Of a stretch of DNA of 64,000 nucleotides, positions 10,383-58,171 are shown in pieces (within the stretch, counting starts at the first letter, position 1; every line of letters starts with the position of its first letter). A program made the position numbers and the translations under genes. Origin of the DNA: Pseudomonadota bacterium (GTDB lineage: Bacteria; Myxococcota_A; UBA796; UBA9615); contig JAAESI010000010.1 of NCBI GenBank assembly GCA_024229515.1, positions 1 through 64,000 on the forward strand, given 5' to 3'. The notes beneath the pieces are model-generated. The model was not told the origin of the DNA, ran no database searches, and was given only the letters and a program-made list of their open reading frames with translations.

Positions 10383-10394
10383 GCTGCCTCCCCT

Positions 10395-28341: not shown

Positions 28342-28769
28342 ACGACTCCAAGCTCCCCGAGGGACAGGCGCTTGCGCCACTGTCCGCCGGGTCCCCGGCC
28401 GTGCGCGCCGCCGCCGACCTGGCCAACCGCCCCAGCGATGGACCGCTGGTGCTGACCACCGACGAGGTCCCCGCGGGGTACCGCGTCGTCCGCACGGTCG
28501 GCCTCGTGCGTGGCAACACCATCCGAGCCCGACACGTCGGCAAGGACATCATGGCGGCCTTCCGCACCCTCGTCGGCGGCGAGATCACCGAGTACACCAA
28601 GCTCATGGCCGAGAGCCGCGAGCAGGCGGTCGACCGCATGCGAGCCGAGTGTGTCGCGCGCGGGGGGAACGCAGTGCTCGCCGCGCGCATGACGACCTCG
28701 ACGGTGATGGGCGGCGCGGCGGAGATCCTCGCCTACGGCACCGCCGTCGTTGTCGAGCCCGAGGGCTAG
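28338..28769 (+). CDS. ybjQ: YbjQ/UPF0145 (DUF74) family protein
   Basis: GYRVVRTVGLVRGNTIRARHVGKDIMAAFRTLVGGEITEYTKLMAESREQAVDRM...VLAYGTAVVVE matches the YbjQ family; translationally coupled to anti-sigma gene. Confidence 0.8.
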   Translation: MNDSKLPEGQALAPLSAGSPAVRAAADLANRPSDGPLVLTTDEVPAGYRVVRTVGLVRGNTIRARHVGKDIMAAFRTLVGGEITEYTKLMAESREQAVDRMRAECVARGGNAVLAARMTTSTVMGGAAEILAYGTAVVVEPEG

Positions 28770-30220: not shown

Positions 30221-30336
30221 GGTGGCGGAGGGTAACGCAAGGCGTAGCAACGCCGCGCAGCGACGGAGGCGCGTAGTCCCAAGGACGACGATGCAAGGCG
30301 CTCCGCGCCGAGAGGCGAAGCCCTCGAGAGCGCGTC

Positions 30337-30659
30337 CAGCGCCGCGCAGCGCCCCGAGGGGCGCGTAGTCGCCGAGGAAGCCCCGGGAGCTCGCGGAATG
30401 AGCAGATCCGCGACGTTTAAGCGGCTGCCCGACTTTGTACATCTCGGCTGCAACAGCCTTCCACTCCGAACCCGGTCGAAGCTCCAAGCGGTGCCCGCGC
30501 ATCGCTTGGAGTGCCCGGTGGTTCGGCGTGGCAGAGCATTGGCAGCGGGGGTGTACAACGGCCGGCAGCCGCTTAAACGTGGCTTGTGATCTCGGCCGCC
30601 TGACGATCCACGGAGCTTCCTTGGCGACTACGCGCGCTTGGGCGCGCTACGCGGCGCTG
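30337..30659. repeat. ~320-bp imperfect palindrome (foldback element) with perfect 17-bp inner arms
   Basis: Left half 30337-30495 aligns along its whole length with the reverse complement of 30500-30659. Perfect inner arms ACGTTTAAGCGGCTGCC (30414-30430 / 30564-30580). Outer arms cagcgccgcg[c/t]agcgc...gcgcgtagtcgcc. Centre ctccaagcg-gtgcccgcgcat-cgcttggag. Confidence 0.6.
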
Positions 30660-31803
30660 ATGCGTCTTGCTCCACCGCCGCGAGAGCCTCCGCGTGGACC
30701 GCCCACAGCGCCTCCATCACACGGGCGCCCACGGGCGTGAGCTCGCCCCGGTCCTGCACGATCGCCAGCGACTCGGCGTTCGTCTGAAGCACCTCCGCGC
30801 GCCGGCGCGCGAACTGCGGGGTTCGGCTCAACAGGTGGTCCTTTTCGCCCAACGCCTGGTGCAGCGCGGCCACCGGCACGAACGCGTGAGCGGCGAGCAG
30901 CACCCCCATGATCGGCCGCAGATCCGGACGCACCGGGGACGGCGACCACTCGGTGTGCCCATTGTTCAGCACCGGATCGAGCCACGTCAGGAGGTTCAGC
31001 TTGCCGTGCTGGGTCTCGTGCACGATCGCTTCGGCCAGCGTCAGCGGATCGGGGTGCAGCGTCAGGTAGATGAGGCCCGGCGCCTCCCGGTACGACGCGC
31101 TGAGGTGCCGCTCGGGCTCGTACCCCACCGGCACCACGCGCAGGAGCGTGACCTCCAACTCGGCGTACAGATCAGGCAGTACGGCCTCGATTACGGCCAA
31201 TGCGTCGTTCAGCGCCTCGACCCATTCGGCGGCGTCCCGGCCCCCGAGGTCGAGGACGTTTCCCTGCTTGTCGGGGTGGGCCTCCACGTTCGCGAGCGGG
31301 TTGGTGTCGACAAGGCCCAGTTCCCCACGGACAAGGGGGCGCGAGGGCGTCAGCGCATCCAGATCTCCCAGCGCCAGGTGCCGGCCGGTCGAAAGCTCGA
31401 CGCCCACGCCGTCGCGATCGGCGACCACGGCGCGCAACGGCTCTGCGAATCGGTGGAACCCGGAGCTTCGAACCTCGGTGGTGGGCCCCCGCCACGACAA
31501 GCCGGCGTCCAGGTGAGGGGCGAGCGCCGCGAGCAGGTGGGGCACGCCCCGACGGAGACCGTCGCGCGCGGGCAGCGCGCCCGAAGCCGAGGCCAACAAC
31601 GGCACCAGAGCATCCAGGGTGCCGACGGCGTCCAGCAGCGCCTCGGGCCGGGTCCTCAGCAGCTTCGTCAGCGCGGTCTGCAGCCGAACCAGGTCCGGGA
31701 GCCCCGACGCACGGACCGACAGCAGGTGCCGCAGCGCCACCATGCGCACCTTGCGTCGCAGCCGAACGGCAACGGTGTCGCCGGGGGAAGGGAGGACCAG
31801 CAC
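30628..31803 (-). CDS. HEXXH-motif domain protein (aKG-HExxH-type peptide hydroxylase-like)
   Basis: LAEAIVHETQHGKLNLL (H-E-x-x-H); ~390 aa; divergent from a radical-SAM gene array, an association recorded for the TIGR04267-like HEXXH domain. Confidence 0.55.
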   Translation of the reverse strand: MLVLPSPGDTVAVRLRRKVRMVALRHLLSVRASGLPDLVRLQTALTKLLRTRPEALLDAVGTLDALVPLLASASGALPARDGLRRGVPHLLAALAPHLDAGLSWRGPTTEVRSSGFHRFAEPLRAVVADRDGVGVELSTGRHLALGDLDALTPSRPLVRGELGLVDTNPLANVEAHPDKQGNVLDLGGRDAAEWVEALNDALAVIEAVLPDLYAELEVTLLRVVPVGYEPERHLSASYREAPGLIYLTLHPDPLTLAEAIVHETQHGKLNLLTWLDPVLNNGHTEWSPSPVRPDLRPIMGVLLAAHAFVPVAALHQALGEKDHLLSRTPQFARRRAEVLQTNAESLAIVQDRGELTPVGARVMEALWAVHAEALAAVEQDASAPRSAPKRA

Positions 31804-31825: not shown

Positions 31826-32974
31826 GTGCTCGCCCCTTTGTCCGATGAGGTCTGGATCGACGTGACCGGCGCCCAACGCGCGGAGAACGCCCAACGCATC
31901 GTTGCCTTCGGCACCCCCCGCCCGGCCCTCGCCGATCTCGTGCGCCAGGCCCGCGAAGCCGACGGCACGCCGGTCCTGGGGGGAGGCGAGCCGACCCTGG
32001 GAAGCGACCTGCCCGACCTCGTCGCCGCGGTCAGCGAGGCGATCGGAAGCCAATGGGTGCTCGCCACCGACGGCCTCGCGCTGACCCAGCCGGGTCCCCT
32101 CGCCTCCCTCGCCCAGCGCGGTCTGACCACCCTCCGGGTGAGGCTCGTTTCGGCCCGGCCGGACGCCCACGACTGGTTCTACGGGCGCCCCGGAGCGACG
32201 AAGGCAGCCGTGCGCGCTCTCCGCACCGCCGCCGCCGCGGGCATCACGACGCAGATCGAAGTGCCGCTCATCCGCCCGACGGTAGACCACCTCGCCGAGA
32301 CCCTGGAGGTCGCCGCGCGCGTGAGCGCCTCCGCGGTGCTCGCCGTGCACTACGACCCCGGCCGGTTCCCCCGGGACGAGCAGGTGACCCTGACGCCGCG
32401 CCTCGGCCTGCTGGAGCAGCCGCTGACCGACACGGCGGCTGCCGCCCTGCGCCTCGGAGTCACCTTCGCGGTGGCGGACCTGCCCCAGTGCTTCCTCCCC
32501 GAAGGCGTCGCCGCCTGCCGTGTGCGCCAGAGCCGACCGACCCCGGCTGCCCCCTGCGGCCCGGACTGCCCGGGCGCCCCGACCTGCGTCGGCGTGCCGG
32601 AGGTCTACCGGTCGCTGTTCGGAAGCTCGGAGCTGCCCGCCGGCCCGCCGACCGACCTCGCAGAAGACGACTTCTCCGGGACGAGCCGCCAGATCCGCAT
32701 GCGCCTCGTCCGCCACGGCGAGCACGCGACCCACCTGCGGGTCACCGCGATCGACCACCCCGACGCTGCGGCCCTGCTCCGCGAGGCGCTCCGGCTGGGC
32801 TTCGCCCGCGTCGAGGTCGCCGCCGATCTCGCCCCCCTGGCGGCCTTCTCCGACGACGAACTGCACCGCCTTCGTCGACTCACGGCCTTGCGTCCGACCG
32901 GCCCCGTGCCGCCCGACCTGAGGGAGCGAATCGGCCGAATCGCTCCCCAGGTGGAGCTAGGGTCGACCTCATGA
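31826..32974 (+). CDS. Radical-SAM-fold paralogue lacking the CxxxCxxC triad (retains C-terminal Cys cluster)
   Basis: VLGGGEPTLGSDL (GGEP SAM-motif), SARPDAHDWFYGRPGATKAAVRAL parallels the SLHG..ELHD..G.PG(A/S)F motif of neighbouring rSAMs. No Cys in the first ~250 aa. C-terminal CFLPEGVAAC...CGPDCPGAPTC. GTG start inferred; translationally coupled (ATGA) to the next rSAM. Confidence 0.5.
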   Translation: MLAPLSDEVWIDVTGAQRAENAQRIVAFGTPRPALADLVRQAREADGTPVLGGGEPTLGSDLPDLVAAVSEAIGSQWVLATDGLALTQPGPLASLAQRGLTTLRVRLVSARPDAHDWFYGRPGATKAAVRALRTAAAAGITTQIEVPLIRPTVDHLAETLEVAARVSASAVLAVHYDPGRFPRDEQVTLTPRLGLLEQPLTDTAAAALRLGVTFAVADLPQCFLPEGVAACRVRQSRPTPAAPCGPDCPGAPTCVGVPEVYRSLFGSSELPAGPPTDLAEDDFSGTSRQIRMRLVRHGEHATHLRVTAIDHPDAAALLREALRLGFARVEVAADLAPLAAFSDDELHRLRRLTALRPTGPVPPDLRERIGRIAPQVELGSTS

Positions 32975-34716
32975 GCCGGCCTTTGCAGGAGGACATGCTC
33001 GAGCGGGAGCGGGTGGCCAACCGCGCCAAGCACTGGGTGCGGGCGGTGACGGCCTGCAACAGCCGGTGCCTGTTCTGCCTCGACAGCGACACGCCCCGGA
33101 ACCTCTTCCTGCCCGCCGAGGACGTCAAAGCCGACCTGCGCCGCGGCATCGAGGACAAAGGGGCGGACAAGGTGATCCTCAGCGGAGGGGAAGCCTCCCT
33201 GCACCCGGAGTTCCTCGACTTCATCCGCTACGGCAGGGAGATCGGCTACGACCGCGTGCAGACCGTGACCAACGGCTGGATGCTCGCCCAGGCAGACTTC
33301 TACGAAGAGGCGGTCCAGGCCGGGCTCGGCGAGATCACGTGGAGCCTGCACGGGCACACCGCCGAGCTGCACGACCACCTCACGGGCACCCCCGGCGCCT
33401 TCGACCGGATGGTCGCGGGCATCCGCCGCGCCGAGGCCGACCCGCGGATCATCAGCAACGTCGACGTGGTCATCAACAAGCAGAACGTGGGCGTGCTGGA
33501 CAAGGTCGTGGAGCTGGCGATGTCCCTGGGGGTGACCGAGTTCGACCTCCTGCACGTCATCCCCCAGGCGGCTGCGTTCGAGCATCGCGACGACCTGTTC
33601 TACGACCCCGCCGAGCACCTCGACGTGCTCCACAAGGTGTTCCGGCTGAACCGGCACCCGGGCTTCGTGATCTGGACGAACCGGTTCCCTGTGCCCTTCT
33701 TGGAGGGGCTCGAGGACCTGATCCAGGACCCCCACAAGATGCTCGATGAGGTGCACGGCCGCCGCTTTCAGGTGCGTCGCTACCTGGACGTCGGGCAGGG
33801 GTTGGACTGCCGTCAGCCGGAGCGCTGCGTGCACTGCTTCATCGAGCCCTTCTGCACGAGCACCGATCGCACGCTCGACCGAATCCATGCCGCCGGCTGG
33901 GAGGTCTGGTTCGGGGACGGTCCCCTCCCCTTCGGCGCGACCCGGCGAGGAGTGGCGGCCCCCTCGACGGACGCGCTGCCGGACGAGCGGCCGCTGTACG
34001 CCGAGGTCGAGGGCGTGGGGCCGGTGCCCGAAGGCGACGTCGTGCTCCGCGCCGAACGGGCCGAGCAGCTGGAGGCATGGGCGGGCTCGGTCGACCTGGA
34101 CGTGCAGCTGAACCGCGACACGGTGCCGTGGCTGCTGACGAACCGGGACCGGCTGGAACGCATGCGCATCCACCAGCCGTCGTGGTCTTCCCTGGAGCAG
34201 GCCGCCGCGCACGACGTGCGGGACCCGGCGCGGTTCTTCCTGCAGCTGGACCGCCCGATTCCGACCTCGGGCCTCGCGGCCTGCCAGGCGCCCGGGGCGA
34301 CGCTGGTGGAGCCTCGACCGATCCTGCGGTCGTCGCTGTTCGACGCGGGCACGGGGCGGCCGTCGGTGCCGGCCCTGGCCGAGGATCACGTCGCCGACGG
34401 CTACCGCGTCCACTCGCTCCGGTGCCGGACCTGCCGGGTGCGTGACCGCTGCGACGGCATTCACGTGAACATGGTTCGCGACCAGGGCCTGAAGCTGGCC
34501 CGCCCGCTGGTGGCGGGGGCCTGGCCCGACGAGGCGGACCGCCAGCTCACGAAGGCAGTCGCGCGCGTGAGGGACGGCCGGGAGCGGGTGCCGGTGGTGC
34601 CGTCGCTACCCGGCCACGACGCTCCGGCGGCGCCCCCGGAGGACCCCTTGGCGGTCCTGGCCCGGGACAAGGCGGAGCAGCGAGCGAAGCGCCGCCTCCA
34701 AATCCTGGACTCCTGA
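32971..34716 (+). CDS. Radical SAM protein (SPASM/twitch-like C-terminal Cys cluster), 581 aa
   Basis: CNSRCLFC triad, GGEASLHPEF, SLHGHTAELHDHLTGTPGAFDRMVAGI, C-terminal CRQPERCVHCFIEPFC; long extra C-terminal domain. Confidence 0.75.
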   Translation: MSRPLQEDMLERERVANRAKHWVRAVTACNSRCLFCLDSDTPRNLFLPAEDVKADLRRGIEDKGADKVILSGGEASLHPEFLDFIRYGREIGYDRVQTVTNGWMLAQADFYEEAVQAGLGEITWSLHGHTAELHDHLTGTPGAFDRMVAGIRRAEADPRIISNVDVVINKQNVGVLDKVVELAMSLGVTEFDLLHVIPQAAAFEHRDDLFYDPAEHLDVLHKVFRLNRHPGFVIWTNRFPVPFLEGLEDLIQDPHKMLDEVHGRRFQVRRYLDVGQGLDCRQPERCVHCFIEPFCTSTDRTLDRIHAAGWEVWFGDGPLPFGATRRGVAAPSTDALPDERPLYAEVEGVGPVPEGDVVLRAERAEQLEAWAGSVDLDVQLNRDTVPWLLTNRDRLERMRIHQPSWSSLEQAAAHDVRDPARFFLQLDRPIPTSGLAACQAPGATLVEPRPILRSSLFDAGTGRPSVPALAEDHVADGYRVHSLRCRTCRVRDRCDGIHVNMVRDQGLKLARPLVAGAWPDEADRQLTKAVARVRDGRERVPVVPSLPGHDAPAAPPEDPLAVLARDKAEQRAKRRLQILDS

Positions 34717-34719
34717 CCG

Positions 34720-35757
34720 ATGGCCAACCTCGGCTACGTGCAGCTGACCCGCGACTGCTACCAGGGCTGTCGGTTCTGCTCGAACCCGCCCACCGGCGTG
34801 GAACTCACAGAACCCCAGATGCGCACCGAAATCGACCGCATGGCGGAGCTCGGCTACGACGGGATCATCCTCACGGGGGGCGAACCATCGACTTCGCCGC
34901 TGCTGTTCCCCGCCCTCGCTCACGCCACCTCACGGGGCCTCCGCAACCGGATGATCACCAACGGACAAAGGCTAGCGGAGCGCGACTTCTTCGCGCGGTG
35001 CGTCGACGCGGGGTTGGAGCACGTCCACCTGAGCCTGCACAGCCACCGGCGGGCGGTGCACGACTTCATCACGCGCTACCCGGGAGCGTTCGACAAACTC
35101 ACGGCCGCGCTGGAGCACGTGCCCCACGTCGGCATCACGGCCGACATCAACACGGTGATCTGCAGCTACAACGCCGACCACCTGGACGCCCTCGTCCGCT
35201 GGATTGTCACCACCTACCCCTACGTTCGGCACTTCGTCTGGAACAACATGGATCCGGACGGCAACCGTGCGGAGGAGAACCCCGACTGCATCGCCAAGCA
35301 CCGTGAGTTCCAGGTCAGCCTGCACCGGGCGATGGACTTCCTCCACGCCTCGGGCCGCACCTTCCGCGCCGAGCGAGTGCCCCTGTGCTTCATGAAGGAG
35401 TTCGCCTGGGCCTCCACCGAGACCCGCAAGATCGTCAAAGAAGAGGAGCGCTGCATCACGTTCCTGGACGGCAAGGGGTTCGTGCGCCAGCGGCAGTTCC
35501 TCCACGGCAAGGGGGACGCCTGCGAGGTCTGCCGCTGGGACCCGATCTGCGCGGGCATGTTCTCGATGGCGAAGACGTTCGACGAGCGGGAGCAGTCGCC
35601 GATCTTCGACGACCCCGATCCGGTCATCCGCGCGGTGTTGGGGAGGGAGCCCGAGCCGGCCCTGAAGGAGCGGATCCGGGCGCGTCGGGGGCAGCGCTCG
35701 ACGACCGAGCAGCCGGACAAAAACACCCGTACTCACGCACGGTTGAAGGTTCTCTGA
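34720..35757 (+). CDS. Radical SAM protein, 345 aa
   Basis: CYQGCRFC triad 12 aa from N-terminus, GGEPSTSP, SLHSHRRAVHDFITRYPGAFDKL, C-terminal CEVCRWDPIC. Confidence 0.75.
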   Translation: MANLGYVQLTRDCYQGCRFCSNPPTGVELTEPQMRTEIDRMAELGYDGIILTGGEPSTSPLLFPALAHATSRGLRNRMITNGQRLAERDFFARCVDAGLEHVHLSLHSHRRAVHDFITRYPGAFDKLTAALEHVPHVGITADINTVICSYNADHLDALVRWIVTTYPYVRHFVWNNMDPDGNRAEENPDCIAKHREFQVSLHRAMDFLHASGRTFRAERVPLCFMKEFAWASTETRKIVKEEERCITFLDGKGFVRQRQFLHGKGDACEVCRWDPICAGMFSMAKTFDEREQSPIFDDPDPVIRAVLGREPEPALKERIRARRGQRSTTEQPDKNTRTHARLKVL

Positions 35758-35776
35758 TGGTGTCTAACAAAGGCGG

Positions 35777-36805
35777 CTAACTGTCCTCCAGCTGCCGGCG
35801 GCGTTGCGCCAGGCGGCTCGCGATCGCGTCATGCCCGTGGTCGGCAGCGCACTGCTCCGGCAGGGTCCCCGCGGGCCTGACGTCCCCGATGCCGAGCCGC
35901 TTCGACGCGCCCGTCGCCCCCCCGGATGGCACACGCGGGTCCGCACCCGCACGCAAGAGCAGCTCGACGATGTCGCGCCGTCCCCGTTCGGCCGCCAGGA
36001 ACACGGCGGTCTCCCCGACGATGTTGCGCCGGTCCAACGCCGCGCCGCCGGCGATGAGCGCTTCCAGCACCTCGGGCTCGCTGAAGTGCGCGGCCCGCAT
36101 CAGGAGCGTCCACCCGTGGGAGTTTCGCTCGTTGGGATCGCCTCCTCGAGCCAGCGCCTCTGTGACTTCGGCCCCGGATCTCAGCAGCAGGAGCGCGCCC
36201 AACTCGGAGGGCGGCGCCATCACGTCGGGCCGAATCCAGGGCAGGTCCCAGGGGCCGTCCAGCAGCGCGGGCTCCGGGCTGCTCGGCGGCGGCGGCGGCG
36301 GCGGCTCCCACCTACCCAGGTGAATGCTCAGCCGATGACGCTGGGCGAGGGCAAAGTCCCGGGCGAGTCGGGTGTAGAAGTCCCGCATCAGGGGCGCTTC
36401 GTCGAACGTCCGACCGATGCGCGCACAGTTGGTGCGGGCACGGCCGAGGCCCTGGACGAGCTGGCCATGGAACGGACTGGACCGAAGCTCCACCGTCGAG
36501 CGCCCGCGCCCCCGCCACCCCGCGAGGTGAATCGCCTCATCGACGAATTGGAAGAAGGCGTACGGCGCCGACCCGCCGATCGCATCGTAGGCCCTCAGGA
36601 CGAGGGCGGCCGACGCTCCGTCGAGGGTCCTCTCAACGACGCCGCCCTGCACCACGAACTCGATCACGGAGCGTGACGGAAGCACCTCGACGAAGCGCCT
36701 GCTGAGTCCCAATCCGGCGAACTGGCGGAGGTACCCGAGGGCGTCGTCGTCACTCAGGCCCAGGGGTGCGACAGCGAGGAGCCCCGCTCCATAGACATCA
36801 CCCAC
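35777..36805 (-). CDS. Ankyrin-repeat protein with N-terminal unknown domain
   Basis: C-terminal ANK repeats (GWTLLMRAAHFSEPEVLEALIAGGAALDRRNIVGETAVFLAAERGRRDIVELLLRAGADP); PPPPPPP linker. Confidence 0.7.
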   Translation of the reverse strand: MGDVYGAGLLAVAPLGLSDDDALGYLRQFAGLGLSRRFVEVLPSRSVIEFVVQGGVVERTLDGASAALVLRAYDAIGGSAPYAFFQFVDEAIHLAGWRGRGRSTVELRSSPFHGQLVQGLGRARTNCARIGRTFDEAPLMRDFYTRLARDFALAQRHRLSIHLGRWEPPPPPPPSSPEPALLDGPWDLPWIRPDVMAPPSELGALLLLRSGAEVTEALARGGDPNERNSHGWTLLMRAAHFSEPEVLEALIAGGAALDRRNIVGETAVFLAAERGRRDIVELLLRAGADPRVPSGGATGASKRLGIGDVRPAGTLPEQCAADHGHDAIASRLAQRRRQLEDS

Positions 36806-36814
36806 GGCGGAGCG

Positions 36815-37393
36815 TCAGATGCGGTCTTCGAACGGGCATCCCGCCCACGCCGCCAGCGCGGCGCCGGCATGCACGGCCCAGGATGAGTCGAAGAGGAGAT
36901 CGTTGCGGCTGTAGCCGATCATCGACTGGGCGGTGATGTTCATCTCGTAGGCGACATCCACGGTGGCGCCATCGTTCAGCTCGGCCTGGATCCCCCGCTC
37001 CACGGAGTCCTCGGCCGCGTACGAGACGATCTTCGCGATGTCACCGACGGCGAGTTCCCGCTTCATGCCGGGGCCGCAGCGGAGCACGCCACTGGATCCA
37101 TGGACCACCCGCCCCTCCTCGCCGTGCCACAGCGAGAAGCCGTCGCCACCCTCGCTCCAGAGAATGTCTCGCTCCCCGTCGTAGCCTCCGAGGGGAAGCC
37201 CGCGGGCCCGCAGTCGTTCACTCACGGACTTCCGCTGGGCCTCGGGGTGCCCTTCCCAGGCCAGCCGCTCGGGCTCGCCCGGTCCGACGTTGTAGACGCC
37301 GAGGATGGCCTGGTCTTCCCACGGCTCGACGTTCCACGCGAGGAGCTTGTCCCCGGCGGTCGCGAGCGCTTCTTCGACGGTCGGATCGGTCAC
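36815..37393 (-). CDS. Hypothetical protein (small ORF 3 downstream of giant gene)
   Basis: 192-aa ORF co-directional with and 10 nt from the upstream ORF; no known motif. Confidence 0.45.
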   Translation of the reverse strand: MTDPTVEEALATAGDKLLAWNVEPWEDQAILGVYNVGPGEPERLAWEGHPEAQRKSVSERLRARGLPLGGYDGERDILWSEGGDGFSLWHGEEGRVVHGSSGVLRCGPGMKRELAVGDIAKIVSYAAEDSVERGIQAELNDGATVDVAYEMNITAQSMIGYSRNDLLFDSSWAVHAGAALAAWAGCPFEDRI

Positions 37394-37402
37394 GGGCAGA
37401 GT

Positions 37403-38446
37403 CTACTGGGCATCGAGGGCCTGCTGCAGGACGGGAGTCCAGGACTTGCGTCGGTTGCGGGACAGCGCGAGCCACTTCTTGAGGGCGGGTCGGCCGACCT
37501 TCTCGTCGATCAGCGCAACTCCGGCGACGACGACGAGCTCATCACGGTCGAGTTCGCCGAGCGAGCTCAGGAGCTTGCCGACCGTCGCGGCCTTGCTCCG
37601 CACGATCTCTGGCGATCGCACCGCCAGTTCCCCTCCGTCGGTGGCGGCGAGCGCTTCCAGCACGTCGGGGTCGAAGTCCCGCGAGGGATCCGTGAGTGTG
37701 CGGAACGCGATGCTCCAGGCCCGAAGGTCGCCTTCATCCAGCTCACCTCGAACCAGGCTCAGCCGCCGCAGCACGGGCATGAGCAGGGTCCAGTTCCAGC
37801 GGTCGGTGCCCACCCGGATCGGCCAGGCCTGGTGCGGGTCCGCGCCCTCCTCCAGGAGTTCGAGGAGCGCCTCGAACGCCGGCGCCGCGCAGAAGCCCTG
37901 AAAGAAGAGGATCGCGGCTCCCACTACTTCGGGCTCAGGGGAACTCAACCGACGGCCCACGGCGTCTCCGAACGCCCTCCCCTCAGGCAGCCCAAGCATG
38001 CGTGAGTACAGACGTTTCGACCACTCGCCGGCGACTTCGCGGGCACGCGCTCCGGCAAGGTCCGGGACCCACCCGGCAAGCACGCGATCGGCGAGCTCAT
38101 CCCAGTCGGTGTCCCGGTCGACGGTCGCTCCATCAACGTCGACCGGGAGCGTCGCCGGGGCATGGCCGCGGCATCGCCAGGGGAGGTTCCGCTCGGTCTC
38201 GAAGGCGTCCGCCTCGTGGCCGGAGACGGCCTGATACAGCGGCCCTGTCCAGGACTCACACGAGCAGCGGTAGGTGCGGGTGGTTCCGACGAGCGCCCAG
38301 GTGACGGCCTCGCCGCAGGCGGTGCAACCCAACTGGTTGCAGCCGATGACGTCGAGCACGACGGGGTGGGCGTAGTCGGTCGGATCGTCGGGGAGTGGAA
38401 GCGTGCCGTCGACGACGTAGCCGCCGTGGTGGCAGTAGTGGCTCAT
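37403..38446 (-). CDS. Hypothetical protein with N-terminal Cys/His cluster (small ORF 2)
   Basis: Start MSHYCHHGG...GCNQLGCTACGE...YRCSCESW; ATGA overlap with upstream ORF; longer ORF to 38587 judged N-terminal over-extension. Confidence 0.45.
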   Translation of the reverse strand: MSHYCHHGGYVVDGTLPLPDDPTDYAHPVVLDVIGCNQLGCTACGEAVTWALVGTTRTYRCSCESWTGPLYQAVSGHEADAFETERNLPWRCRGHAPATLPVDVDGATVDRDTDWDELADRVLAGWVPDLAGARAREVAGEWSKRLYSRMLGLPEGRAFGDAVGRRLSSPEPEVVGAAILFFQGFCAAPAFEALLELLEEGADPHQAWPIRVGTDRWNWTLLMPVLRRLSLVRGELDEGDLRAWSIAFRTLTDPSRDFDPDVLEALAATDGGELAVRSPEIVRSKAATVGKLLSSLGELDRDELVVVAGVALIDEKVGRPALKKWLALSRNRRKSWTPVLQQALDAQ

Positions 38447-39240
38447 GCCGGCGCTTCGAGAGGAGAGCCCGCCGTCTCGAGCGTCCAGGCCTCCTGGATC
38501 CCCAGGCGGCGCCGAACCTCGTCGGGATCCGAAAGATCCTCGACCCATCGGAAGAACCACAATCCGTCGCGCTCGAAGCGGCGGCACTCGGGCGGCGTCG
38601 GAGCCTCGATGAGGCGAAGGCAGGCGGCGAGGTCGGCCTCGTAGGCAAGCCGCCCGGCAGGCGCCGTTCGGTGGAACTCGGGATCGAGCACGGTCAGGGC
38701 CGCGCCCATCCCCCAGCGGGTCTCGAATCGCGGGGGGGAAGGCCGCGGGTAGTCCAGATCAGGCAGCAACGCAGCTTGATCGCCCAGGGTGACCGTACCC
38801 GGCAGCGCGGCGCGAACCGCCAGCGTGAGTGCGACGCAGAGATCCACCACATCGCCGTTGAACTGCCGCCATTGCTCGGCCTTCAGGGTGTAGCTCAGGA
38901 AGAACTTGTCGTTTCCTCGACAGCGGGGATGGCTGCGTCGATCCCAGACTCCGACCCTCAGTCGAGTCCCCTTCCGCGCGCTCCGACCGAGGAAGAAGTT
39001 CGCTCCCGAATCGACCGTGAGCATCTCGGGCGCCGCGGCATCGCGAGCGAGCGCCTCCATGCTCGCGCCTCGGATTGGCGTGCCCGCGGTCGGGCCGAGT
39101 CCGCGGAACGGCAGCCCCAGCCCCGCGTTCTCGACGGCGGCGGCGATGCGCGGAAGTGCATCGGGCTCGAGCCACCAACCTTCGGCGGCGTCGGCCACCT
39201 CGAACGCGCGCAGCGTCAGCCCCAGTTGGAAATCGCTCAT
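38443..39240 (-). CDS. Hypothetical protein (small ORF 1, directly downstream of giant gene)
   Basis: 265-aa ORF beginning 18 nt after the giant gene stop; no known motif. Confidence 0.45.
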   Translation of the reverse strand: MSDFQLGLTLRAFEVADAAEGWWLEPDALPRIAAAVENAGLGLPFRGLGPTAGTPIRGASMEALARDAAAPEMLTVDSGANFFLGRSARKGTRLRVGVWDRRSHPRCRGNDKFFLSYTLKAEQWRQFNGDVVDLCVALTLAVRAALPGTVTLGDQAALLPDLDYPRPSPPRFETRWGMGAALTVLDPEFHRTAPAGRLAYEADLAACLRLIEAPTPPECRRFERDGLWFFRWVEDLSDPDEVRRRLGIQEAWTLETAGSPLEAPA

Positions 39241-39258
39241 CGGAGTGCAGGCAACTGG

Positions 39259-49412: not shown

Positions 49413-50417
49413 GTGACCGCCCCGGCCCCCCGCGCTCGTCAGCTCATCCTGACGGTCACGCGCGCCTGCAATCTCCGCTGCTCCTACTGCCCCACCGTCA
49501 AGGACGGGTTCCCTTCCCTCACGGTCGATGACGCCATCGCTGCCGTGCAGCTGTTCGTCGACCGCTACGGCGGAGGCGAGATCAAGCTGTTCGGGGGCGA
49601 GCCGCTGCTGGTCCCCGACGTCGTCGAGGCGGTGCTGGAGCAGACGGCGCGGATGCCCGCGATCACGCGCGTTCAGCTCAGCACCAACGGCCTCGGACTC
49701 GACGATGGTTGGCTCGACCGCCTCGCCGACCACCCCACCGCGGTGCTCCAGATCTCGATCGACGGAGACGAGTCGATCCACCAGCGGTTCCGCCGCAGCC
49801 TGCCCGGGATCCCCGCCTCGTACGCCCACTTGATGGGGCTGCAGGAGCGGCTCGTCGCCCAGCCCAGGCTCGTGGTCACCCAGACCATCGCGCCCGCCGC
49901 GGCCAACCGCGCCGCCGCTTCGTTCGAACACCTCCGCGGCCTCGGCTTCCGCCGATTCAACCTCCTGCCGGGCTACTACCTCGCGTGGAGCGCCCCCCAG
50001 TTGGCGCACCTGCGGACGGCGTTCGACGCGATCGGGGCGAGCCTGCGCGCCACCTGGGCCGAGGACGGCTACGTCTACCTCCGCAACCTGTTCACGCTGG
50101 CCCCGACGCCGTTCTTCAACACCGGGCTGGTGGTCGACAGCGACCGCACGATCCACCCCAGCAACGTCGGCCTGTCCGGCCAACTGGACGGACTTCGGGG
50201 GCAGACCCAGGTCGGCACGCTCGACGATCCCCCCACGCCCGCGGAACTGGACGCCGCCGGCGAGCGGGCCGCCGCTCTGGTCCAGGAGGCGCTCCCGACC
50301 CGCATCCTGGACTCGACCCGCTCCGCCGACGCCGAGCTCACGCGGCTCGTGCGATCCCTCTACCCGAGCTGGGCGGCGTGGCGGAAGCGGCGTCGCGCCT
50401 CCGGGAGCGCGGCGTGA
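49413..50417 (+). CDS. hxsC: Radical SAM maturase, HxsC-like
   Basis: CNLRCSYC triad 19 aa from N-terminus, GGEPLL, SIDGDESIHQRFR; 334 aa; assignment B vs C by size/order is inference. Confidence 0.7.
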   Translation: MTAPAPRARQLILTVTRACNLRCSYCPTVKDGFPSLTVDDAIAAVQLFVDRYGGGEIKLFGGEPLLVPDVVEAVLEQTARMPAITRVQLSTNGLGLDDGWLDRLADHPTAVLQISIDGDESIHQRFRRSLPGIPASYAHLMGLQERLVAQPRLVVTQTIAPAAANRAAASFEHLRGLGFRRFNLLPGYYLAWSAPQLAHLRTAFDAIGASLRATWAEDGYVYLRNLFTLAPTPFFNTGLVVDSDRTIHPSNVGLSGQLDGLRGQTQVGTLDDPPTPAELDAAGERAAALVQEALPTRILDSTRSADAELTRLVRSLYPSWAAWRKRRRASGSAA

Positions 50418-50488
50418 CCAAGATCCACGGGATCGGCGCCCCGGGCGGGCGCGATGAAACTCCCTGGATCGGTCCCGACGGCCAGGTC

Positions 50489-51397
50489 ATGCGGCGGCTC
50501 GAGCTGCACCTGACCTACACCTGCCCCGAGCGCTGCGCGTTCTGCTCCGAAGCGCACCGCATGAGCCGCTTCAAAGCGTTCCCCGTGACCTTCGGCCGCG
50601 TCGCCTCCGTGCTGCGAACTCACGCCTCACGCGGGGTCCGGGCGCTGCACATCACGGGCGGCGAACCAACCATCCACCCCCGCTTCCTCGACACCCTGAA
50701 GCTGGCCCGGAAGCTGGGCATGCGCACATCCGTGGGGACCATCGGCACGATGCTCCAGCGGCCGGCGTTTGCCGCCGAGGTGCTGCCGTTCCTGGACGAG
50801 GCGCTGTTCTCCCTCCACGGCCCCACCGCCGAGTTGCACGACGAGCTCGCGGGGCGGCCCGGCAGCTTCGACCAGGTGACCGCCGCGATCCGGACCTGCC
50901 GCTCGCTCGACCCCGAGTTCGGGGCGTTCGTGAACACCGTGCTGTGCCGCCGCAACCTCGATGCCCTCCCCGACACGCTGCGGCTGGCCGACTCGCTCGG
51001 CGCCTCCCTCATCATCGTCAGCAACACCACCCCCGAGGGCGACGGCTACGACCGGTTCGACGAGCTCGCCCCGCGACTGGACGAACTCACGGCCGCCATG
51101 GCGGCGCTGCCGACGGACGAGCTCAAAGCGACGCTGCGGATCTTCGGCGTGCCGATGTGCCTGCTGGGGGAGCACGCGATGCTCAGCAACGACATGCACT
51201 GGGACCCCCGGGTCACCGTCGAGTGGGCGTCGAAGCCGGGCAAGGTCGTGTTCGACGACTTCTTCAACTGGAACCCCGGCCGCAAGCGCGTGCACGTCGA
51301 GGCCTGCGCCTCCTGCTCCCGCAAGGGGCTGTGCCAGGGGGTGTGGGACCGGTACGCCGAGTTGTGGCCGGTGGACGCCCTGCAGGCGAAGCCGTGA
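50489..51397 (+). CDS. Third radical SAM protein in the Hxs locus (paralogue of the 32971 and 34720 rSAMs)
   Basis: MRRLELHLTYTCPERCAFC, GGEPTIHP, SLHGPTAELHDELAGRPGSFDQVTAAI, C-terminal CASCSRKGLCQGVWD; an alternative GTG start at 50414 overlaps hxsC stop. Confidence 0.7.
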   Translation: MRRLELHLTYTCPERCAFCSEAHRMSRFKAFPVTFGRVASVLRTHASRGVRALHITGGEPTIHPRFLDTLKLARKLGMRTSVGTIGTMLQRPAFAAEVLPFLDEALFSLHGPTAELHDELAGRPGSFDQVTAAIRTCRSLDPEFGAFVNTVLCRRNLDALPDTLRLADSLGASLIIVSNTTPEGDGYDRFDELAPRLDELTAAMAALPTDELKATLRIFGVPMCLLGEHAMLSNDMHWDPRVTVEWASKPGKVVFDDFFNWNPGRKRVHVEACASCSRKGLCQGVWDRYAELWPVDALQAKP

Positions 51398-52515
51398 GCC
51401 TCACCACGCTGGCCACGCCCTGCGCCCTCGTCGACCGGGATCGGGTGGACGCCAACACCGCCGCGATGGCAGCCCGGGCGGGGAAGCGAGGGGTCGCGCT
51501 GCGGCCTCACGTCAAGACGCACAAGTGCGCCGAGGCGGCCGCGTTGCAGGTGAGGGGGCACGACGGGGGCATCACCGCCTCGACCCTGGACGGCGCGATC
51601 TGGTTCGCCCAACGAGGGTTCGACGACGTGACCCTCGCGGTGCCGCTGGCGCCGGTGCGGGCCGAGGCAGCCGTGGTCGCAAGCGAAGGCATGAAGCGGC
51701 TGGGGCTGCTCATCGACTCAGACGCGGCCGTCGACGCGATCGAAGCCGCCGCCCGAGCCCGGGGGCGCATCGTTCCGGTGCAGTTGAAGGTCGACTGCGG
51801 CTACGGCCGCGCGGGGGTGAATCCCGAGGGAGACGACGGGCCGCGCCTGGCCCGGCGGCTCGCCGACAGCCCCCACATCGACTTCGAGGGCGTGCTCGCC
51901 CATGCCGGCCACAGCTACGCCTCCACGACCGTCGATGAGGTGGTGGCGATCGCGGAATCCGAGCGAGCCGTCACGGTCGGGTTCGCCGACCGCCTCCGCG
52001 CCGACGGCCTGGAGGTCCGCACCGTCAGCGTGGGCTCGACGCCGACCGCCGTGCACGGCCGCGACTGGACCGGAGTGACCGAGCTCCGCCCCGGCAACTA
52101 CGCCTTCTTCGACGCCTTCCAGGCAGGCATCGGCAGCTGCTCGACGGACGCCTGCGCGATGACGGTGCTGACGTCGGTAATCGGCGTGCACCCCGGCCGC
52201 AACCAGGTGCTGACGGACGCCGGCGCGCTGGGCCTGAGCAAGGACGCCGGCCCCCGCCACGTCGACCCCGACTGCGGGTACGGAGTCGTGCTCGATCTCG
52301 ACCGCCGTCCCCTCCCCCTCCGGGTCGTCGGTCTGAGCCAGGAGCACGGCGAACTCTCGGTGCTCGACCCCGTGGTCTTCGACACCCTGAAGGTGGGCTC
52401 GATGGTGCAGATCATCCCGAACCACAGCTGCCTCGCCGCGGCGCTCTACTCGCAGTACGTGGTCGTGGCGGGAGGCGAGATCGTCGACCGCTGGGAGCGC
52501 AGCCCCCGCCGCTAG
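51394..52515 (+). CDS. PLP-dependent D-serine dehydratase-like / D-threonine aldolase (DSD1, alanine-racemase fold)
   Basis: LRPHVKTHKC PLP-lysine motif, alanine-racemase-like N-domain, HSYAS; GTGA overlap with preceding rSAM. Confidence 0.7.
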   Translation: MSLTTLATPCALVDRDRVDANTAAMAARAGKRGVALRPHVKTHKCAEAAALQVRGHDGGITASTLDGAIWFAQRGFDDVTLAVPLAPVRAEAAVVASEGMKRLGLLIDSDAAVDAIEAAARARGRIVPVQLKVDCGYGRAGVNPEGDDGPRLARRLADSPHIDFEGVLAHAGHSYASTTVDEVVAIAESERAVTVGFADRLRADGLEVRTVSVGSTPTAVHGRDWTGVTELRPGNYAFFDAFQAGIGSCSTDACAMTVLTSVIGVHPGRNQVLTDAGALGLSKDAGPRHVDPDCGYGVVLDLDRRPLPLRVVGLSQEHGELSVLDPVVFDTLKVGSMVQIIPNHSCLAAALYSQYVVVAGGEIVDRWERSPRR

Positions 52516-53822
52516 TCCGTGGTCTCGTCCTCGTCCGCGGGCTTCGCGTCGGCGGCGAAGGGGTTGGCGTCCATCAGCCGCGTCTCCGCCACGCCGAACT
52601 CGGGCGTGGGCTTCGGGAACCGCGCCTCCACGACCTTGTCGATCTCGACCGAAGCCGCTTCCTCGAGCGGCTCCGGGTCGATCGGCGCGGCCTTCGGGGC
52701 CGGCCCGCCGGTCGGGAAGACCGTCTTGTCGACCTCAGCGTCGGCCGCGTCCCGCATCGAGGCGATCGAGTCCTCCGACTCCGACGCCGGGGGCACCGTG
52801 TCCTGCTCGGGCAGCGGGGGCGCCGCCGCGGGGGGCACCGTGTCAGCGGCCTGAAGCTCGGGCGTCACCGGCGCCAGAGGCTCCTCCTCGGCCACGGGCT
52901 CGGGCTCAGGCGCGGGCTCGACGGCCGCGGGGGCCTCGGCGGGCGGCTCGGGCACGGCCGTGGCCGGTGGCGCGAGGATCGCCTGGCCGGCCGGAGACTT
53001 CGGATCGAGCGAGTCCAACGACTGCCACTGGGAACGCTTCGCGCCCCGCGGCGGACCGGTCCTGATCGCGTCCGCGCCCTCTTCGAAGTGGCGGTACGAC
53101 GGCTCGTCCGCGAGCCCGTAGATCTTCACGTGCGCAAACGCCATCGAGGCGATCGCCACAGGCACGTACATCAGCCCCGGGATCAGGCAGAACATCATCC
53201 CGATGGTCACGATCAGCCCGTTCAGGAACGACAACGCGAACAGCCCGGGGATGTGCTTGCTCGCGCCCCGGAAGCTCCACTTGATCGCGTCCAAAGGCTG
53301 CAGGCCCCGCTCCGCGATGAGCGGGTACGTGAACGCCAGGAGGATGCGCACAATCATCGAGCAGAACAGGATCGAGCCGTAGCCGCCGACCACGATCACG
53401 ATGATGAGCCCGACGGGCGGCTGCCCTCCCGACATGATCGTCGGGGCGAGCATGACCCAGCCGAAGCCGACCATCAGCCCCATGAGCGGGAACGTGATCG
53501 CCGCCGAGATGAACACCGTCAGCAGCGTCGCCGCGAACGACTCCCACATCCACTCGAAGCCCTTGAAGATGTCCCCGGGCCCCGCCTGCTCCTCCCGGAT
53601 CCACTTGAAGACGACGTAGTAGAAGCCGCACATCGCCGGCCCCAGCAGCACGATCGAGCCGTACGGGATCAGCATCGCGAGGAACAACAGGCCGACCAGC
53701 CCCATGGACGGGCCCAGCCGGCCGTCGCCGACGATCAGGCTCCAGCCTGCTCGGATGCACTCGAAAGGTTCGACGGCGACCTTGCTGATCGCCTGTGGGG
53801 GACGCGCCGCTTCCGGAATCAT
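52512..53822 (-). CDS. Polytopic membrane protein with Pro/Ala/Glu-rich C-terminal tail
   Basis: ~7 TM helices in first 260 aa, then low-complexity PEPPAEAPAAVEPAPEPEP region; ATGA overlap with upstream rSAM. Confidence 0.55.
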   Translation of the reverse strand: MIPEAARPPQAISKVAVEPFECIRAGWSLIVGDGRLGPSMGLVGLLFLAMLIPYGSIVLLGPAMCGFYYVVFKWIREEQAGPGDIFKGFEWMWESFAATLLTVFISAAITFPLMGLMVGFGWVMLAPTIMSGGQPPVGLIIVIVVGGYGSILFCSMIVRILLAFTYPLIAERGLQPLDAIKWSFRGASKHIPGLFALSFLNGLIVTIGMMFCLIPGLMYVPVAIASMAFAHVKIYGLADEPSYRHFEEGADAIRTGPPRGAKRSQWQSLDSLDPKSPAGQAILAPPATAVPEPPAEAPAAVEPAPEPEPVAEEEPLAPVTPELQAADTVPPAAAPPLPEQDTVPPASESEDSIASMRDAADAEVDKTVFPTGGPAPKAAPIDPEPLEEAASVEIDKVVEARFPKPTPEFGVAETRLMDANPFAADAKPADEDETTD

Positions 53823-55156
53823 CAGCTTCTCCCAAGGGCCGCCGCCACCGCCTCAATCGCAGGGCGCGCCTCCTCCGCTGTCGTACGCTCCCCGACCTCA
53901 AACCTTGCGGTCCGGTTCCCGAGAACGAGTCGGAACGATGCCTGATCCGGCCCGTTGAAGGTCACCTCGACGTCACGATCGACCCGCACGGCCCCCGCCC
54001 AGCGCCACCCCGCGAACGGGCCCGACGCCTTCAATCGCTTCGCCCGGGCGGCAGCCGCGAGCAAGTCTCGATCGAGCTCGTCGTTCGGTCGGCCGCGAAT
54101 TGCATCTCGCCGACGATCCGCCTGGATGCGCGCCTCGGCGCTCAGCGGCACCAGCTCCTCCAGGCCGTAGAACGCGGCGTACTTCTCGGGCACCCCCCGG
54201 CAGGCATCCCGGAAGCCGCACTCCCCGCACGCGGGGCCGTGAACCATGCCGGCCCGCTGGTGGGCGTACTTGTCCCACACCCGACCCAGCCGCCCGGCGC
54301 CGTCGGTGGTCACCGTGGCGGTGTCCTCGCCCCCGTGTTGGATGCGCCACGCCCACGCCGGCAGCGTGCAGAACGGCAGGTTGCCCACGTTGACGTCGTA
54401 GGTCGGCTCGATCGCTTCGAACGCGCGGAGCATCTCATCGAACGCGGGGGCCATGTCCGTGAACCGCACCAGGATGCGGCGGAGGTGGTCTTCGCTTCGT
54501 ACCCCCGCGTTGGCGGGGCGCACGACGTCGACGTGGAACTGCCGCACCCCGTGATCGGTGAGGAACGCCGCGTACTTCGGCAGCGAGGCGTAGCTGAGTG
54601 CGTTGACGCAGAGGTTCGCGGTCACGTCCTGGTCACGCTCCTTCAGCCAGACCAGCCCGCGCCGGATGCGCTCGAAGGCGCCCTTGCGGCCGACCACCTC
54701 GTCGTGGGTCGCTTCGTCGCCGCCCTGGATGCTGAACCGCCACGTGAAGCGGCCGAGCGCGACGACCTCCTCCATGAACCCGGTCTTCCAGGTGCGCACG
54801 CCGTTGGTGAAGATCGTGATGTCGTCGAAGCCGAGGCTCAGCGCATGCTTCAGCGACGGCAGGAAGCTCGGCTGGATGGTCGGCTCACCGCCCAGGAAGG
54901 TGAGCCGGGTGACGCCTCGGGCCGCCGCCGCCTCCAGCGCCGCGAAGATCGGCTCGGTGTCGATCTTCGGCGCCAGCCCCTGCTCGGTGAGCTGGCCGCT
55001 GACGCAGAAGACGCACCGGTTGTTGCAGAAGTGGCCGAGCTGGATCTCGACCTGGCTGTCGGCGCCCCGCACCGTGACGGACACGGCTTCGGACAGGTGC
55101 TCGGGGCTGTGCCCCTGGGCCCCCGCCCCGCCCAGGAGGCGGACCAGGCCGCTCAT
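53822..55156 (-). CDS. Radical SAM protein (fifth member of the SLHG/ELHD paralogue group)
   Basis: CNNRCVFC triad, GGEPTIQP, SIQGGDEATHDEVVGRKGAFERIRRGL, C-terminal PACGECGFRDAC; ORF extension to 55267 overlaps upstream gene and is rejected. Confidence 0.7.
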   Translation of the reverse strand: MSGLVRLLGGAGAQGHSPEHLSEAVSVTVRGADSQVEIQLGHFCNNRCVFCVSGQLTEQGLAPKIDTEPIFAALEAAAARGVTRLTFLGGEPTIQPSFLPSLKHALSLGFDDITIFTNGVRTWKTGFMEEVVALGRFTWRFSIQGGDEATHDEVVGRKGAFERIRRGLVWLKERDQDVTANLCVNALSYASLPKYAAFLTDHGVRQFHVDVVRPANAGVRSEDHLRRILVRFTDMAPAFDEMLRAFEAIEPTYDVNVGNLPFCTLPAWAWRIQHGGEDTATVTTDGAGRLGRVWDKYAHQRAGMVHGPACGECGFRDACRGVPEKYAAFYGLEELVPLSAEARIQADRRRDAIRGRPNDELDRDLLAAAARAKRLKASGPFAGWRWAGAVRVDRDVEVTFNGPDQASFRLVLGNRTARFEVGERTTAEEARPAIEAVAAALGRS

Positions 55157-58110: not shown

Positions 58111-58171
58111 GCCGGGCAGGGTACCAAGGCCCGCCCTGAACCGCCGGTGTAGAGTGTGCCCGCTTCGACCC

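Follow-up and report, generated by a model that had tools for sequence, protein, structure and literature searches.

A putative extended HXS maturation gene set with seven radical SAM-fold genes in uncultured Myxococcota

Seven radical SAM-fold genes lie in and around an Hxs operon

We examined positions 1 to 64,000 of contig JAAESI010000010.1 (assembly GCA_024229515.1), a stretch hereafter called the window, from a bacterium recorded as Pseudomonadota and placed by GTDB in Myxococcota_A (UBA796; UBA9615). A first-pass annotation had pointed to seven genes of the radical S-adenosylmethionine (SAM) family between positions 31826 and 55156, and these genes, which we call R1, R2, R3, HxsB, R5, R6, and R7, are the subject of this study. 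HxsB, R5, and R6 lie in one operon with genes for two HxsD-type proteins and for HxsA4, a small precursor consisting largely of His-Gly-Ser repeats. The window has a G+C content of approximately 70%, and its raw lists of open reading frames (ORFs) are full of spurious frames. Genes were therefore set by using frame plots of third-position GC content (GC3) together with the translations, and both support real genes at all coordinates given here.

The count of seven was upheld. All seven proteins exceed the gathering score of the Pfam radical SAM family PF04055 (29.5 bits) with values between 35.4 and 70.2 bits, and a tblastn search of the whole 64-kb window with the seven proteins revealed no eighth copy. 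From the genome-wide density of radical SAM genes, we estimate that about 0.1 such genes would be expected per 23 kb, and seven is far above this value. The radical SAM genes and their closest neighbors are as follows, where family cut-offs are given in parentheses after the scores.

30628-31803, minus strand: aKG-HExxH-type peptide beta-hydroxylase with an HETQH motif, transcribed divergently from R1; TIGR04267, 100.8 bits over profile positions 1-177 of 177 (40).
31826-32974, plus strand: R1, pseudo-radical SAM protein with GGGEPT and a C-terminal Cys motif, lacking CxxxCxxC; PF04055, 35.4 bits.
32971-34716, plus strand: R2, radical SAM protein (CNSRCLFC) with a twitch-like Cys motif and a 280-amino-acid extension; PF04055, 56.7 bits.
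34720-35757, plus strand: R3, radical SAM protein (CYQGCRFC) with a twitch-like motif; PF04055, 70.2 bits.
46318-46845, plus strand: 175-amino-acid protein with a twin-arginine translocation (Tat) signal (SRREVLK), the first gene of the Hxs operon.
46858-47289, plus strand: HxsD; TIGR03976, 54.1 bits (50).
47286-47501, plus strand: HxsD-like protein (HxsD'), 71 amino acids; NF038315, 58.7 bits (41).
47498-48967, plus strand: HxsB, radical SAM/SPASM maturase; TIGR03978, 493.2 bits over the full profile (370); PF04055, 50.7 bits.
48993-49268, plus strand: HxsA4 precursor; NF038313, 59.5 bits (55).
49413-50417, plus strand: R5, radical SAM protein without an auxiliary Cys motif; PF04055, 64.5 bits.
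50414-51397, plus strand: R6, radical SAM protein (CPERCAFC) with a twitch-like motif, its start overlapping the R5 stop; PF04055, 66.5 bits.
51394-52515, plus strand: pyridoxal phosphate (PLP) enzyme with an Ala_racemase_N domain (PF01168, 85.9 bits) and a D-Ser-dehydratase-like domain (PF14031, 76.3 bits).
53822-55156, minus strand: R7, radical SAM protein (CNNRCVFC) with a twitch-like motif and a unique 100-amino-acid tail, in a separate operon; PF04055, 69.7 bits.

Two of the start sites call for comment. The NCBI annotation (P0121) begins R1 17 codons further upstream than position 31826. For R6, the GTG at 50414 is more likely to be the start than the ATG at 50489, because residues P17 to G23, which precede the internal Met, are nearly invariant in orthologues, and because the public annotation also gives a protein of 327 amino acids. 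Many neighboring genes overlap by 4 nucleotides from start to stop (R1/R2, HxsD/HxsD', HxsD'/HxsB, R5/R6, and R6/PLP enzyme), which indicates co-translation.

Five of the proteins form one subfamily nearest to HxsC

The first-pass annotation had also assigned five of the seven genes to one paralogous subfamily, and three types of comparison agree with this assignment. By BLASTP, R1, R2, R3, R6, and R7 are 24-35% identical to each other (34-97 bits), compared with 17-45 bits against HxsB and R5. By phmmer, R2, R3, R6, and R7 match each other at 36-88 bits and R1 does so at 20-32 bits, with the best radical SAM protein of solved structure (PqqE or BlsE) at about 46 bits. When profiles built from orthologue sets were aligned by using hhalign, scores were 116-210 among the five, 53-83 against R5, 24-66 against HxsB, and 73-108 against canonical HxsC. 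By all three methods, the five are thus nearer to one another than to either HxsB or R5, and they constitute one subfamily. This large group is now labeled just "MoaA/NifB/PqqE/SkfB family" and is flagged here for genome mining.

The two sequence features previously offered as hallmarks of this subfamily are present, but neither is specific to it. The block S-x-H-G...HD...G-x-x-G-A-F is real and generic, with looser versions in HxsB, R5, and canonical HxsC. The proposed C-terminal Cys-rich extensions come down to a single twitch-like motif, C...CxxCx5CxG, that is also carried by canonical HxsC and, in the form CxxCx5CG, by the SPASM domain of HxsB. We found C...CxxCx5C in R2, R3, R6, and R7 as well as in all orthologues of R2 (22/22), R3 (23/23), and R6 (81/81). 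R1 has Cx4Cx5C instead, and R5 has no such motif, which appears in just 2 of 67 R5 orthologues. The motif implies one predicted auxiliary cluster per protein. The CxxxCxxC motif of radical SAM enzymes is found in six of the seven proteins, with R1 as the exception. The 280-amino-acid C-terminal extension of R2 matches R2 orthologues only.

As canonical references, we used HxsB/HxsC pairs annotated on plasmids of Sphingobium and Aeromonas. HxsB of the window is 36-39% identical to the annotated HxsB proteins of these two genera and also matches TIGR03906 at 82 bits. The best window match of canonical HxsC is R3 (48-49 bits), followed by R7 and R2. Against the HxsC model TIGR03977 (cut-off 267.9 bits), R3 scores 96 bits, and this is its top family; the other scores are 73.1 for R7, 68.2 for R2, 55.8 for R6, and 28.5 for R1. 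Against the HxsC4 model NF038332 (cut-off 500 bits), which is the top NCBIfam family for R2, R6, and R7, these three proteins score 95.5, 87.4, and 86.7 bits, respectively, and R3 scores 68.3 bits. The five-member subfamily therefore appears to lie nearest to HxsC and HxsC4 while belonging to neither family. R3 is, as judged from these scores and its orthologues, the paralogue most conserved and closest to canonical HxsC.

R5 had previously been taken for HxsC, with both it and HxsB described as more distant from the five. The distance was confirmed for both proteins, whereas the name was not. Canonical HxsC and R5 are not significantly similar (BLASTP E value of 0.089, no phmmer match), HxsC is outside the 25 best NCBIfam families for R5, and its top family is PapB (95 bits, below the cut-off). 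We therefore rule out R5 as HxsC, and it is the five-member subfamily that is HxsC/HxsC4-like.

A structure model of R6 (AlphaFold2 [AF2]) has a radical SAM core whose best matches in the PDB are BlsE and SkfB, and its C-terminal domain is of low confidence. Sequence and fold searches of the PDB with R6, R3, and R1 returned generic twitch/SPASM relatives (BlsE, SkfB, PqqE, CteB, and viperin) and gave no functional specificity.

R1 is a conserved pseudo-radical SAM protein

The gene at 31826 had been called degenerate, and the comparison with its relatives agrees. R1 carries VTGAQRAENAQRI where CxxxCxxC would be located, and this motif is absent from all 23 aligned proteins of the R1 family. 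Because the motif is missing from R1 and from its 23 aligned relatives, R1 is predicted to have the radical SAM fold without being a functional radical SAM enzyme. Other features of the family are invariant or nearly so among the 23 proteins, including GGGEPTLRxDLP, TDGLAL, HDW..G..GA, and the cysteines C222, C248, and C254. The AF2 model of R1 (predicted local distance difference test score of 85) is a radical SAM partial barrel, with BlsE, SkfB, GDGT-MAS, and SuiB as its best PDB matches. R1 is the fastest evolving of all components, with a median orthologue identity of 35%. The possibility that R1 is a pseudogene was examined and dismissed: its in-frame GC3 is approximately 0.9, motifs are conserved in orthologues, and the fold is confidently predicted. 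R1 thus appears to be a conserved pseudo-enzyme.

R1 is closely tied to its neighbor R2. Its stop codon lies in the 4-nucleotide overlap with the R2 start, and the two genes are fused in frame in one metagenome-assembled genome (MAG) (L061, 275-2953). A sister clade of R1, which we call G6 (hhalign score of 524), keeps an intact motif, CNNRCRFC. In a subset of genomes (L074-L083), G6 lies about 2 kb downstream of R6, at approximately 12.1 kb in each locus, and in L081 this copy has also lost the motif.

HxsA4 is the sole HxS-repeat protein of the window

The HxsA4 precursor has 91 amino acids. A Lys-rich leader ending in LAQ is followed by HCS, eight copies of HGS, and a terminal HGQW, which makes nine H-x-S units. 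It lacks both a peptidoglycan-binding domain and a signal peptide, and the canonical HxsA model (TIGR03979) scores just 24 bits against a cut-off of 121.65. The sole Pfam match is a sub-threshold collagen-like hit caused by the repeats. Among the ORFs of the window, HxsA4 is the only one with HxS repeats, and no other precursor-like or His-rich ORF was found near R1-R3 in the window. An equivalent with a conserved leader lies between HxsB and R5 in nearly all related loci. The number of HGS repeats ranges from 7 to approximately 50 between species (loci L002-L083), and the LAQHCS junction and the HGSHGQW end are invariant.

The core operon runs in the order Tat-signal protein, HxsD, HxsD-like protein, HxsB, HxsA4, R5, and R6, followed by the PLP enzyme. 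The small HxsD-like ORF, which the first-pass annotation had overlooked, is located between HxsD and HxsB in 50 of 51 related loci and overlaps both genes by 4 nucleotides. Scans of Pfam and NCBIfam gave no family match for the Tat-signal protein, whose twin-arginine motif is kept in orthologues; this protein may serve as a partner in export or as another substrate. The PLP enzyme is coupled translationally to R6, has a weak BhcC-like match, and was found only in the window, in L004 (71% identity), and in L098. It is a lineage-specific addition. The position after R6 holds another member of the subfamily, R8, in 41 of 68 loci.

Orthologous groups of the subfamily predate the species that carry them

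When one genome was scanned for each species, R6 relatives turned up in 101 of them. We kept 80 loci, all from Myxococcota MAGs labeled Polyangiaceae, Sandaracinus, or "Deltaproteobacteria." Some MAG records with the same high-GC myxobacterial cluster are labeled Klebsiella, Enterobacterales, or Rickettsiales (L004, L044, L053, L079, L081, and others), and these labels look wrong.

When the window proteins were compared with the 80 loci by using tblastn, median orthologue identities were 70% for R3, 63% for R6, 62% for HxsB, 61% for HxsD, 58% for R5, 54% for R2, 48% for the HExxH protein, 39% for the Tat-signal protein, and, as noted above, lowest for R1. Ranges were 42-72% for R2, 50-76% for R5, and 54-76% for R6. 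In database searches, R6 has more than 120 clusters of relatives at 63-87% identity and R3 has more than 120 at 70-90%, whereas R1 has 25 relatives at just 30-42%. In a neighbor-joining tree, the groups of R1, R2, R3, R5, R6, R8, and G7 are each monophyletic with 91-100% bootstrap support, and the window copies fall inside their own groups. The R8 and G7 groups have no member in the window.

Because the paralogues are just 24-35% identical, compared with median identities of 54-70% to their own orthologues (35% for R1), and because the groups are monophyletic, we conclude that the duplications predate the species. Before the divergence of these species, the subfamily had already given rise to at least eight orthologous groups, five of which this genome carries. 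The expansion is therefore an old, clade-level feature of uncultured Myxococcota and not a strain- or species-level one.

The same paralogue set is clustered in related genomes

The first-pass annotation had suggested checking whether the paralogues are also clustered in related genomes. This is the case: the set is syntenic in dozens of species. Approximately 80 species-level Myxococcota MAGs share this neighborhood, and in their loci we counted genes within 10 kb on either side of R6 unless stated otherwise. The typical layout is the HExxH gene on the minus strand, then R1-R2-R3, the Tat-signal gene, HxsD, HxsD-like, HxsB, HxsA4, R5, and R6. Upstream of R6, we found R5 in 53 of 56 loci, HxsD in 50, HxsB in 48, and the Tat-signal protein in 46. 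At least one of R1, R2, and R3 is present in 22 of the 32 loci with full 10-kb flanks, which is a lower bound given that R3 of the window itself lies 14.6 kb from R6. Radical SAM-like ORFs number 5 per 21 kb at the median and 8 at the maximum.

The R1-R3 genes and the core are contiguous in many of these genomes. In at least 10 species, the Tat-HxsD-HxsB operon directly follows R1-R2-R3 in the same orientation, and in loci L014, L025, L036, L046, and L054 the whole layout from the HExxH gene to R6 is contiguous, with R3 directly upstream of the Tat-signal gene. A scan anchored on R3 found R2 and R3 always adjacent, with the Hxs core beside them in L103 and L104. HExxH orthologues (39-54% identity) adjoin R1/R2 in 20 loci. 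A compact R3-R5-R6 trio in L058, L063, and L102 may represent the system in minimal or dispersed form.

Gene fusions were also encountered. R5 and R6 are fused in frame in L036 (~8993-11000) and L062 (~8963-10930). Together with the R1-R2 fusion, they may count as Rosetta-stone evidence for a pairing of the enzymes. The merging of R5 with R6 and of R1 with R2 in single-linkage clustering was set aside as a sign of relationship, since it is due to the in-frame fusions (L036, L062, and L061) and not to homology.

Similarities to and differences from known systems

Canonical HxsABCD is an anti-phage system that blocks phage DNA entry (Li et al., Nat Commun 2026, PMC13128918). In that system, HxsB, HxsC, and HxsD mature HxsA, HxsC binds HxsD, and maturation involves N-terminal processing and a gain of 8 Da on the sequence SHRSS (PMC13128918). 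Canonical HXS loci are found almost exclusively in Pseudomonadota (99.7%), and over 99.8% comprise four genes (PMC13128918).

The locus described here resembles that system in several respects. HxsB and HxsD score over the family cut-offs, an HxS-repeat precursor is present, and there is more than one radical SAM maturase. Furthermore, the CxxxCxxC, GGEPT, HD...G-AF, and C-terminal CxxCx5C-G motifs of HxsC are common to the paralogues found here. The differences are just as evident. The canonical gene order D-B-C-A is replaced by Tat-D-D'-B-A-R5-R6-PLP, and at least 11 genes take the place of four. The precursor is a 91-amino-acid (HGS)n protein without the peptidoglycan-binding domain of HxsA, and no protein reaches the HxsC cut-off. 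A pseudo-radical SAM protein, an HExxH hydroxylase, and a Tat-signal protein are extra, and the host clade is Myxococcota.

The NCBIfam "type 4" models match in part. The HxsA4 (NF038313) and HxsD-like (NF038315) cut-offs are exceeded by the precursor and the small HxsD-like protein, respectively, whereas R2, R6, and R7, at 87-96 bits, are not HxsC4. Our literature search found no publication on HxsA4 or HxsC4. The HxsA4, HxsC4, and HxsD-like names already exist in NCBIfam, and what is new here is the enzyme-rich variant of HXS.

Regarding the hydroxylase, aKG-HExxH enzymes beta-hydroxylate His or Asp in RiPPs (peptides that are made by the ribosome and modified after translation) after radical SAM cross-linking, and they can also cleave backbones oxidatively (PMC12636437). 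As in the ChlB/ChlH-type cyclophane pathways (PMC12636437), a TIGR04267 hydroxylase is found next to radical SAM maturases. Unlike in those pathways, the hydroxylase here is encoded by a separate, divergent gene beside a pseudo-radical SAM/radical SAM pair, and the substrate carries HGS repeats rather than a three-residue cyclophane motif.

Among enzymes of solved structure, SkfB (6efn), BlsE (7vob), PqqE (6c8v), and CteB (5why) share the partial TIM-barrel core and a C-terminal auxiliary-cluster Cys motif with R6, R3, and R1, but at just 15-22% identity and TM-scores of about 0.5. The haloarchaeal pseudo-SAM/SPASM family (TIGR04347) provides a precedent for lost SAM-cluster cysteines. R1 scores 33.4 bits against this model (cut-off 525) and is not a member, and it differs in that its neighbor, to which it is fused in one MAG, is an intact paralogue.

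Quinohemoprotein amine dehydrogenase maturation offers a further analogy. There, the radical SAM/SPASM enzyme QhpD cross-links the small subunit, which is then exported. In both cases, a radical SAM/SPASM enzyme would mature a small polypeptide for the periplasm, and a Tat-signal gene is the first gene of the operon examined here. No dehydrogenase subunits are encoded at the locus.

A proposed maturation pathway for HxsA4 and its alternatives

These findings support the view that the radical SAM genes encode enzymes of the type that modifies peptides or proteins, as had been anticipated. We propose, with moderate confidence, that the genes make up an extended "type-4" HXS maturation gene set that is conserved in uncultured Myxococcota and carries out one multi-step pathway on HxsA4. 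A shared His-rich substrate had been suggested before, and it is the most economical reading for the other enzymes, because HxsA4 is the sole HxS-repeat ORF. It probably does not extend to R7, which may belong to a separate LTD-associated system and is likely to have a target of its own.

The chemistry, step order, partner roles, and export that we infer would be as follows. The HxsD-type small proteins would present HxsA4 to the radical SAM enzymes, as HxsD of the E. coli system does with HxsC. Each of HxsB, R5/R6, and R2/R3 might introduce its own kind of radical-mediated modification into the His/Ser repeats, and the HExxH enzyme would then hydroxylate the product. R1, which keeps the auxiliary-cluster cysteines, would not cleave SAM and could serve as a non-catalytic partner of R2. 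Finally, the product would reach the envelope, possibly along with the protein exported by Tat.

Several observations weigh against this proposal. Some genomes separate the parts: in L101 and L105, no Hxs core lies within 10 kb of R2-R3, R6 lacks a nearby core or HxS repeat in L008, L017, and L024, and the R3-R5-R6 trios have no HxsB, HxsD, or HxS-repeat ORF within 10 kb. In the window itself, 10.5 kb of unrelated minus-strand genes lie between the R1-R3 module and the core, and R7-like genes occur alone in three long contigs (L089, L093, and L094). The fusions seen in MAGs could be frameshift or assembly artefacts. Likewise, none of the five paralogues reaches the HxsC cut-off (96 of 267.9 bits at most) or the HxsC4 cut-off (95.5 of 500 bits at most), and the neighbor-joining tree does not resolve how the subfamily is placed with respect to canonical HxsC and R5 (bootstrap of 50-61). 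Because of these bootstrap values, we do not claim descent from HxsC and rely on the profile-profile scores.

The alternative that best withstands the evidence is that three independent maturation systems lie side by side, although we consider it rather unlikely for the locus as a whole. According to this explanation, the HExxH protein and R1-R3 would act on an unrecognised substrate, the Hxs core and the LTD-R7-membrane protein operon would each have a task of their own, and the radical SAM proteins would share ancestry but not substrate. This would account for the three separate transcription units with unrelated genes between R1-R3 and the core, for the R2-R3 pairs and R7-like genes found apart, and for the recurrence of an LTD-type secreted protein that could itself be a protein substrate. 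It is less easily reconciled with the same-strand arrangement of R1-R2-R3 and the Tat-HxsD-HxsB operon in at least 10 species, with the finding that no further ORF near R1-R3 of the window is precursor-like or His-rich, or with the R3-R5-R6 trios, which mix genes of both modules. For R7 considered alone, the chances of such independence are roughly even.

A role in anti-phage defense like that of canonical HXS, with accessory radical SAM genes and repeat variation as products of an arms race, would be compatible with an extended HxsA4 pathway. The phage block by HxsABCD (PMC13128918), the range of 7 to 50 repeats, and the variation of R8, G6, G7, and the PLP enzyme between species are in line with this possibility. 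We nevertheless regard it as improbable. HxsA4 is devoid of the peptidoglycan-binding domain and signal peptide, and the distribution over approximately 100 species genomes of one clade, with R6 at 54-76% identity, looks like vertical inheritance. Moreover, a PADLOC scan of the seven radical SAM proteins, HxsD, HxsA4, and a giant protein described below gave just generic sub-family viperin-like radical SAM matches, a weak ZorA match, and no defense assignment, and family scans recognized no typical defense genes in the flanks.

A recent lineage-specific burst of duplication at the locus, as the first-pass annotation had it, would fit five members of one subfamily within 23 kb and an expansion so far seen only in Myxococcota MAGs, but it is extremely improbable, and as a species- or genus-level event it is refuted, given paralogue identities of 24-35% against orthologue medians of 54-70% (maxima of 90% for R3 and 87% for R6), the nesting of each window copy in its own orthologue clade, and the shared synteny.

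A bolder version of the HxsA4 pathway can be put forward tentatively, and we think that it is more probably wrong than right. Six to eight radical SAM proteins would form a conserved assembly line on one (His-Gly-Ser)n peptide of 7-50 repeats, with an obligatory R1-R2 heteromer of pseudo-radical SAM and radical SAM proteins, an R5-R6 two-enzyme unit, two HxsD-type adaptors, and the HExxH hydroxylase. The product would be an unprecedented, repeatedly cross-linked His-derived polymer or cofactor that is exported with a Tat-dependent carrier and has a function unlike HXS phage defense. If this is true, then the pathway would be among the most radical SAM-dense peptide-maturation pathways known.

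HXS was shown only in 2026 to be an anti-phage effector matured by radical SAM enzymes, and the chemistry behind its +8-Da change on an S-H-x-S-S motif still awaits a solution. The myxobacterial variant offers a much simpler, purely repetitive substrate and a conserved dead paralogue. It also offers a natural series of genomes with differing enzyme sets, some of which include R8, G6, G7, or the PLP enzyme and some of which carry R5-R6 or R1-R2 fusions. The division of labor among HxsB-type and HxsC-type enzymes is therefore directly testable.

Flanking genes and the R7 operon

The remaining genes considered here lie on the minus strand.

28766-30502, minus strand: M28 peptidase.
35777-46137, minus strand: ankyrin protein, two hypothetical proteins, and a 2292-amino-acid K/A/D-rich protein, forming the block between R3 and the Tat-signal gene.
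52512-53822, minus strand: multi-pass membrane protein with a Pro/Ala/Glu-rich tail, the last gene of the LTD-R7 operon, its start abutting the R7 stop.
55162-58188, minus strand: secreted lipoprotein with LTD (54.7 bits) and Cu-binding_MopE (74.1 bits) Pfam matches, directly upstream of R7 in the same operon.

The M28 peptidase was considered as a candidate leader peptidase and set aside, since its gene is not conserved in related loci. The Lys/Ala/Asp-rich giant protein of 2292 amino acids (39259-46137) matches no Pfam or NCBIfam family and lies in a region with a strong AT skew. A closer relative (L005) has a 64%-identical giant gene in the same position. The 10.5-kb minus-strand block, which takes in 35777-38587 as well as the giant gene, is an insertion and not part of the system.

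R7 had been described as the neighbor of a membrane protein and an LTD lipoprotein, and the three genes do make up a single minus-strand operon, which converges with the plus-strand Hxs operon. Family scans with the membrane protein gave, at most, weak, sub-threshold matches. A metagenome scan anchored on R7 yielded few long contigs. The pair of R7 and LTD genes is conserved in L036, L054, and L087, where the LTD orthologues beside the R7 orthologues are 47-62% identical. Large secreted LTD/MopE or Ig-repeat proteins (26-49% identity) also recur beside the Hxs cluster; some are encoded upstream of the Tat gene, others on the opposite strand downstream.

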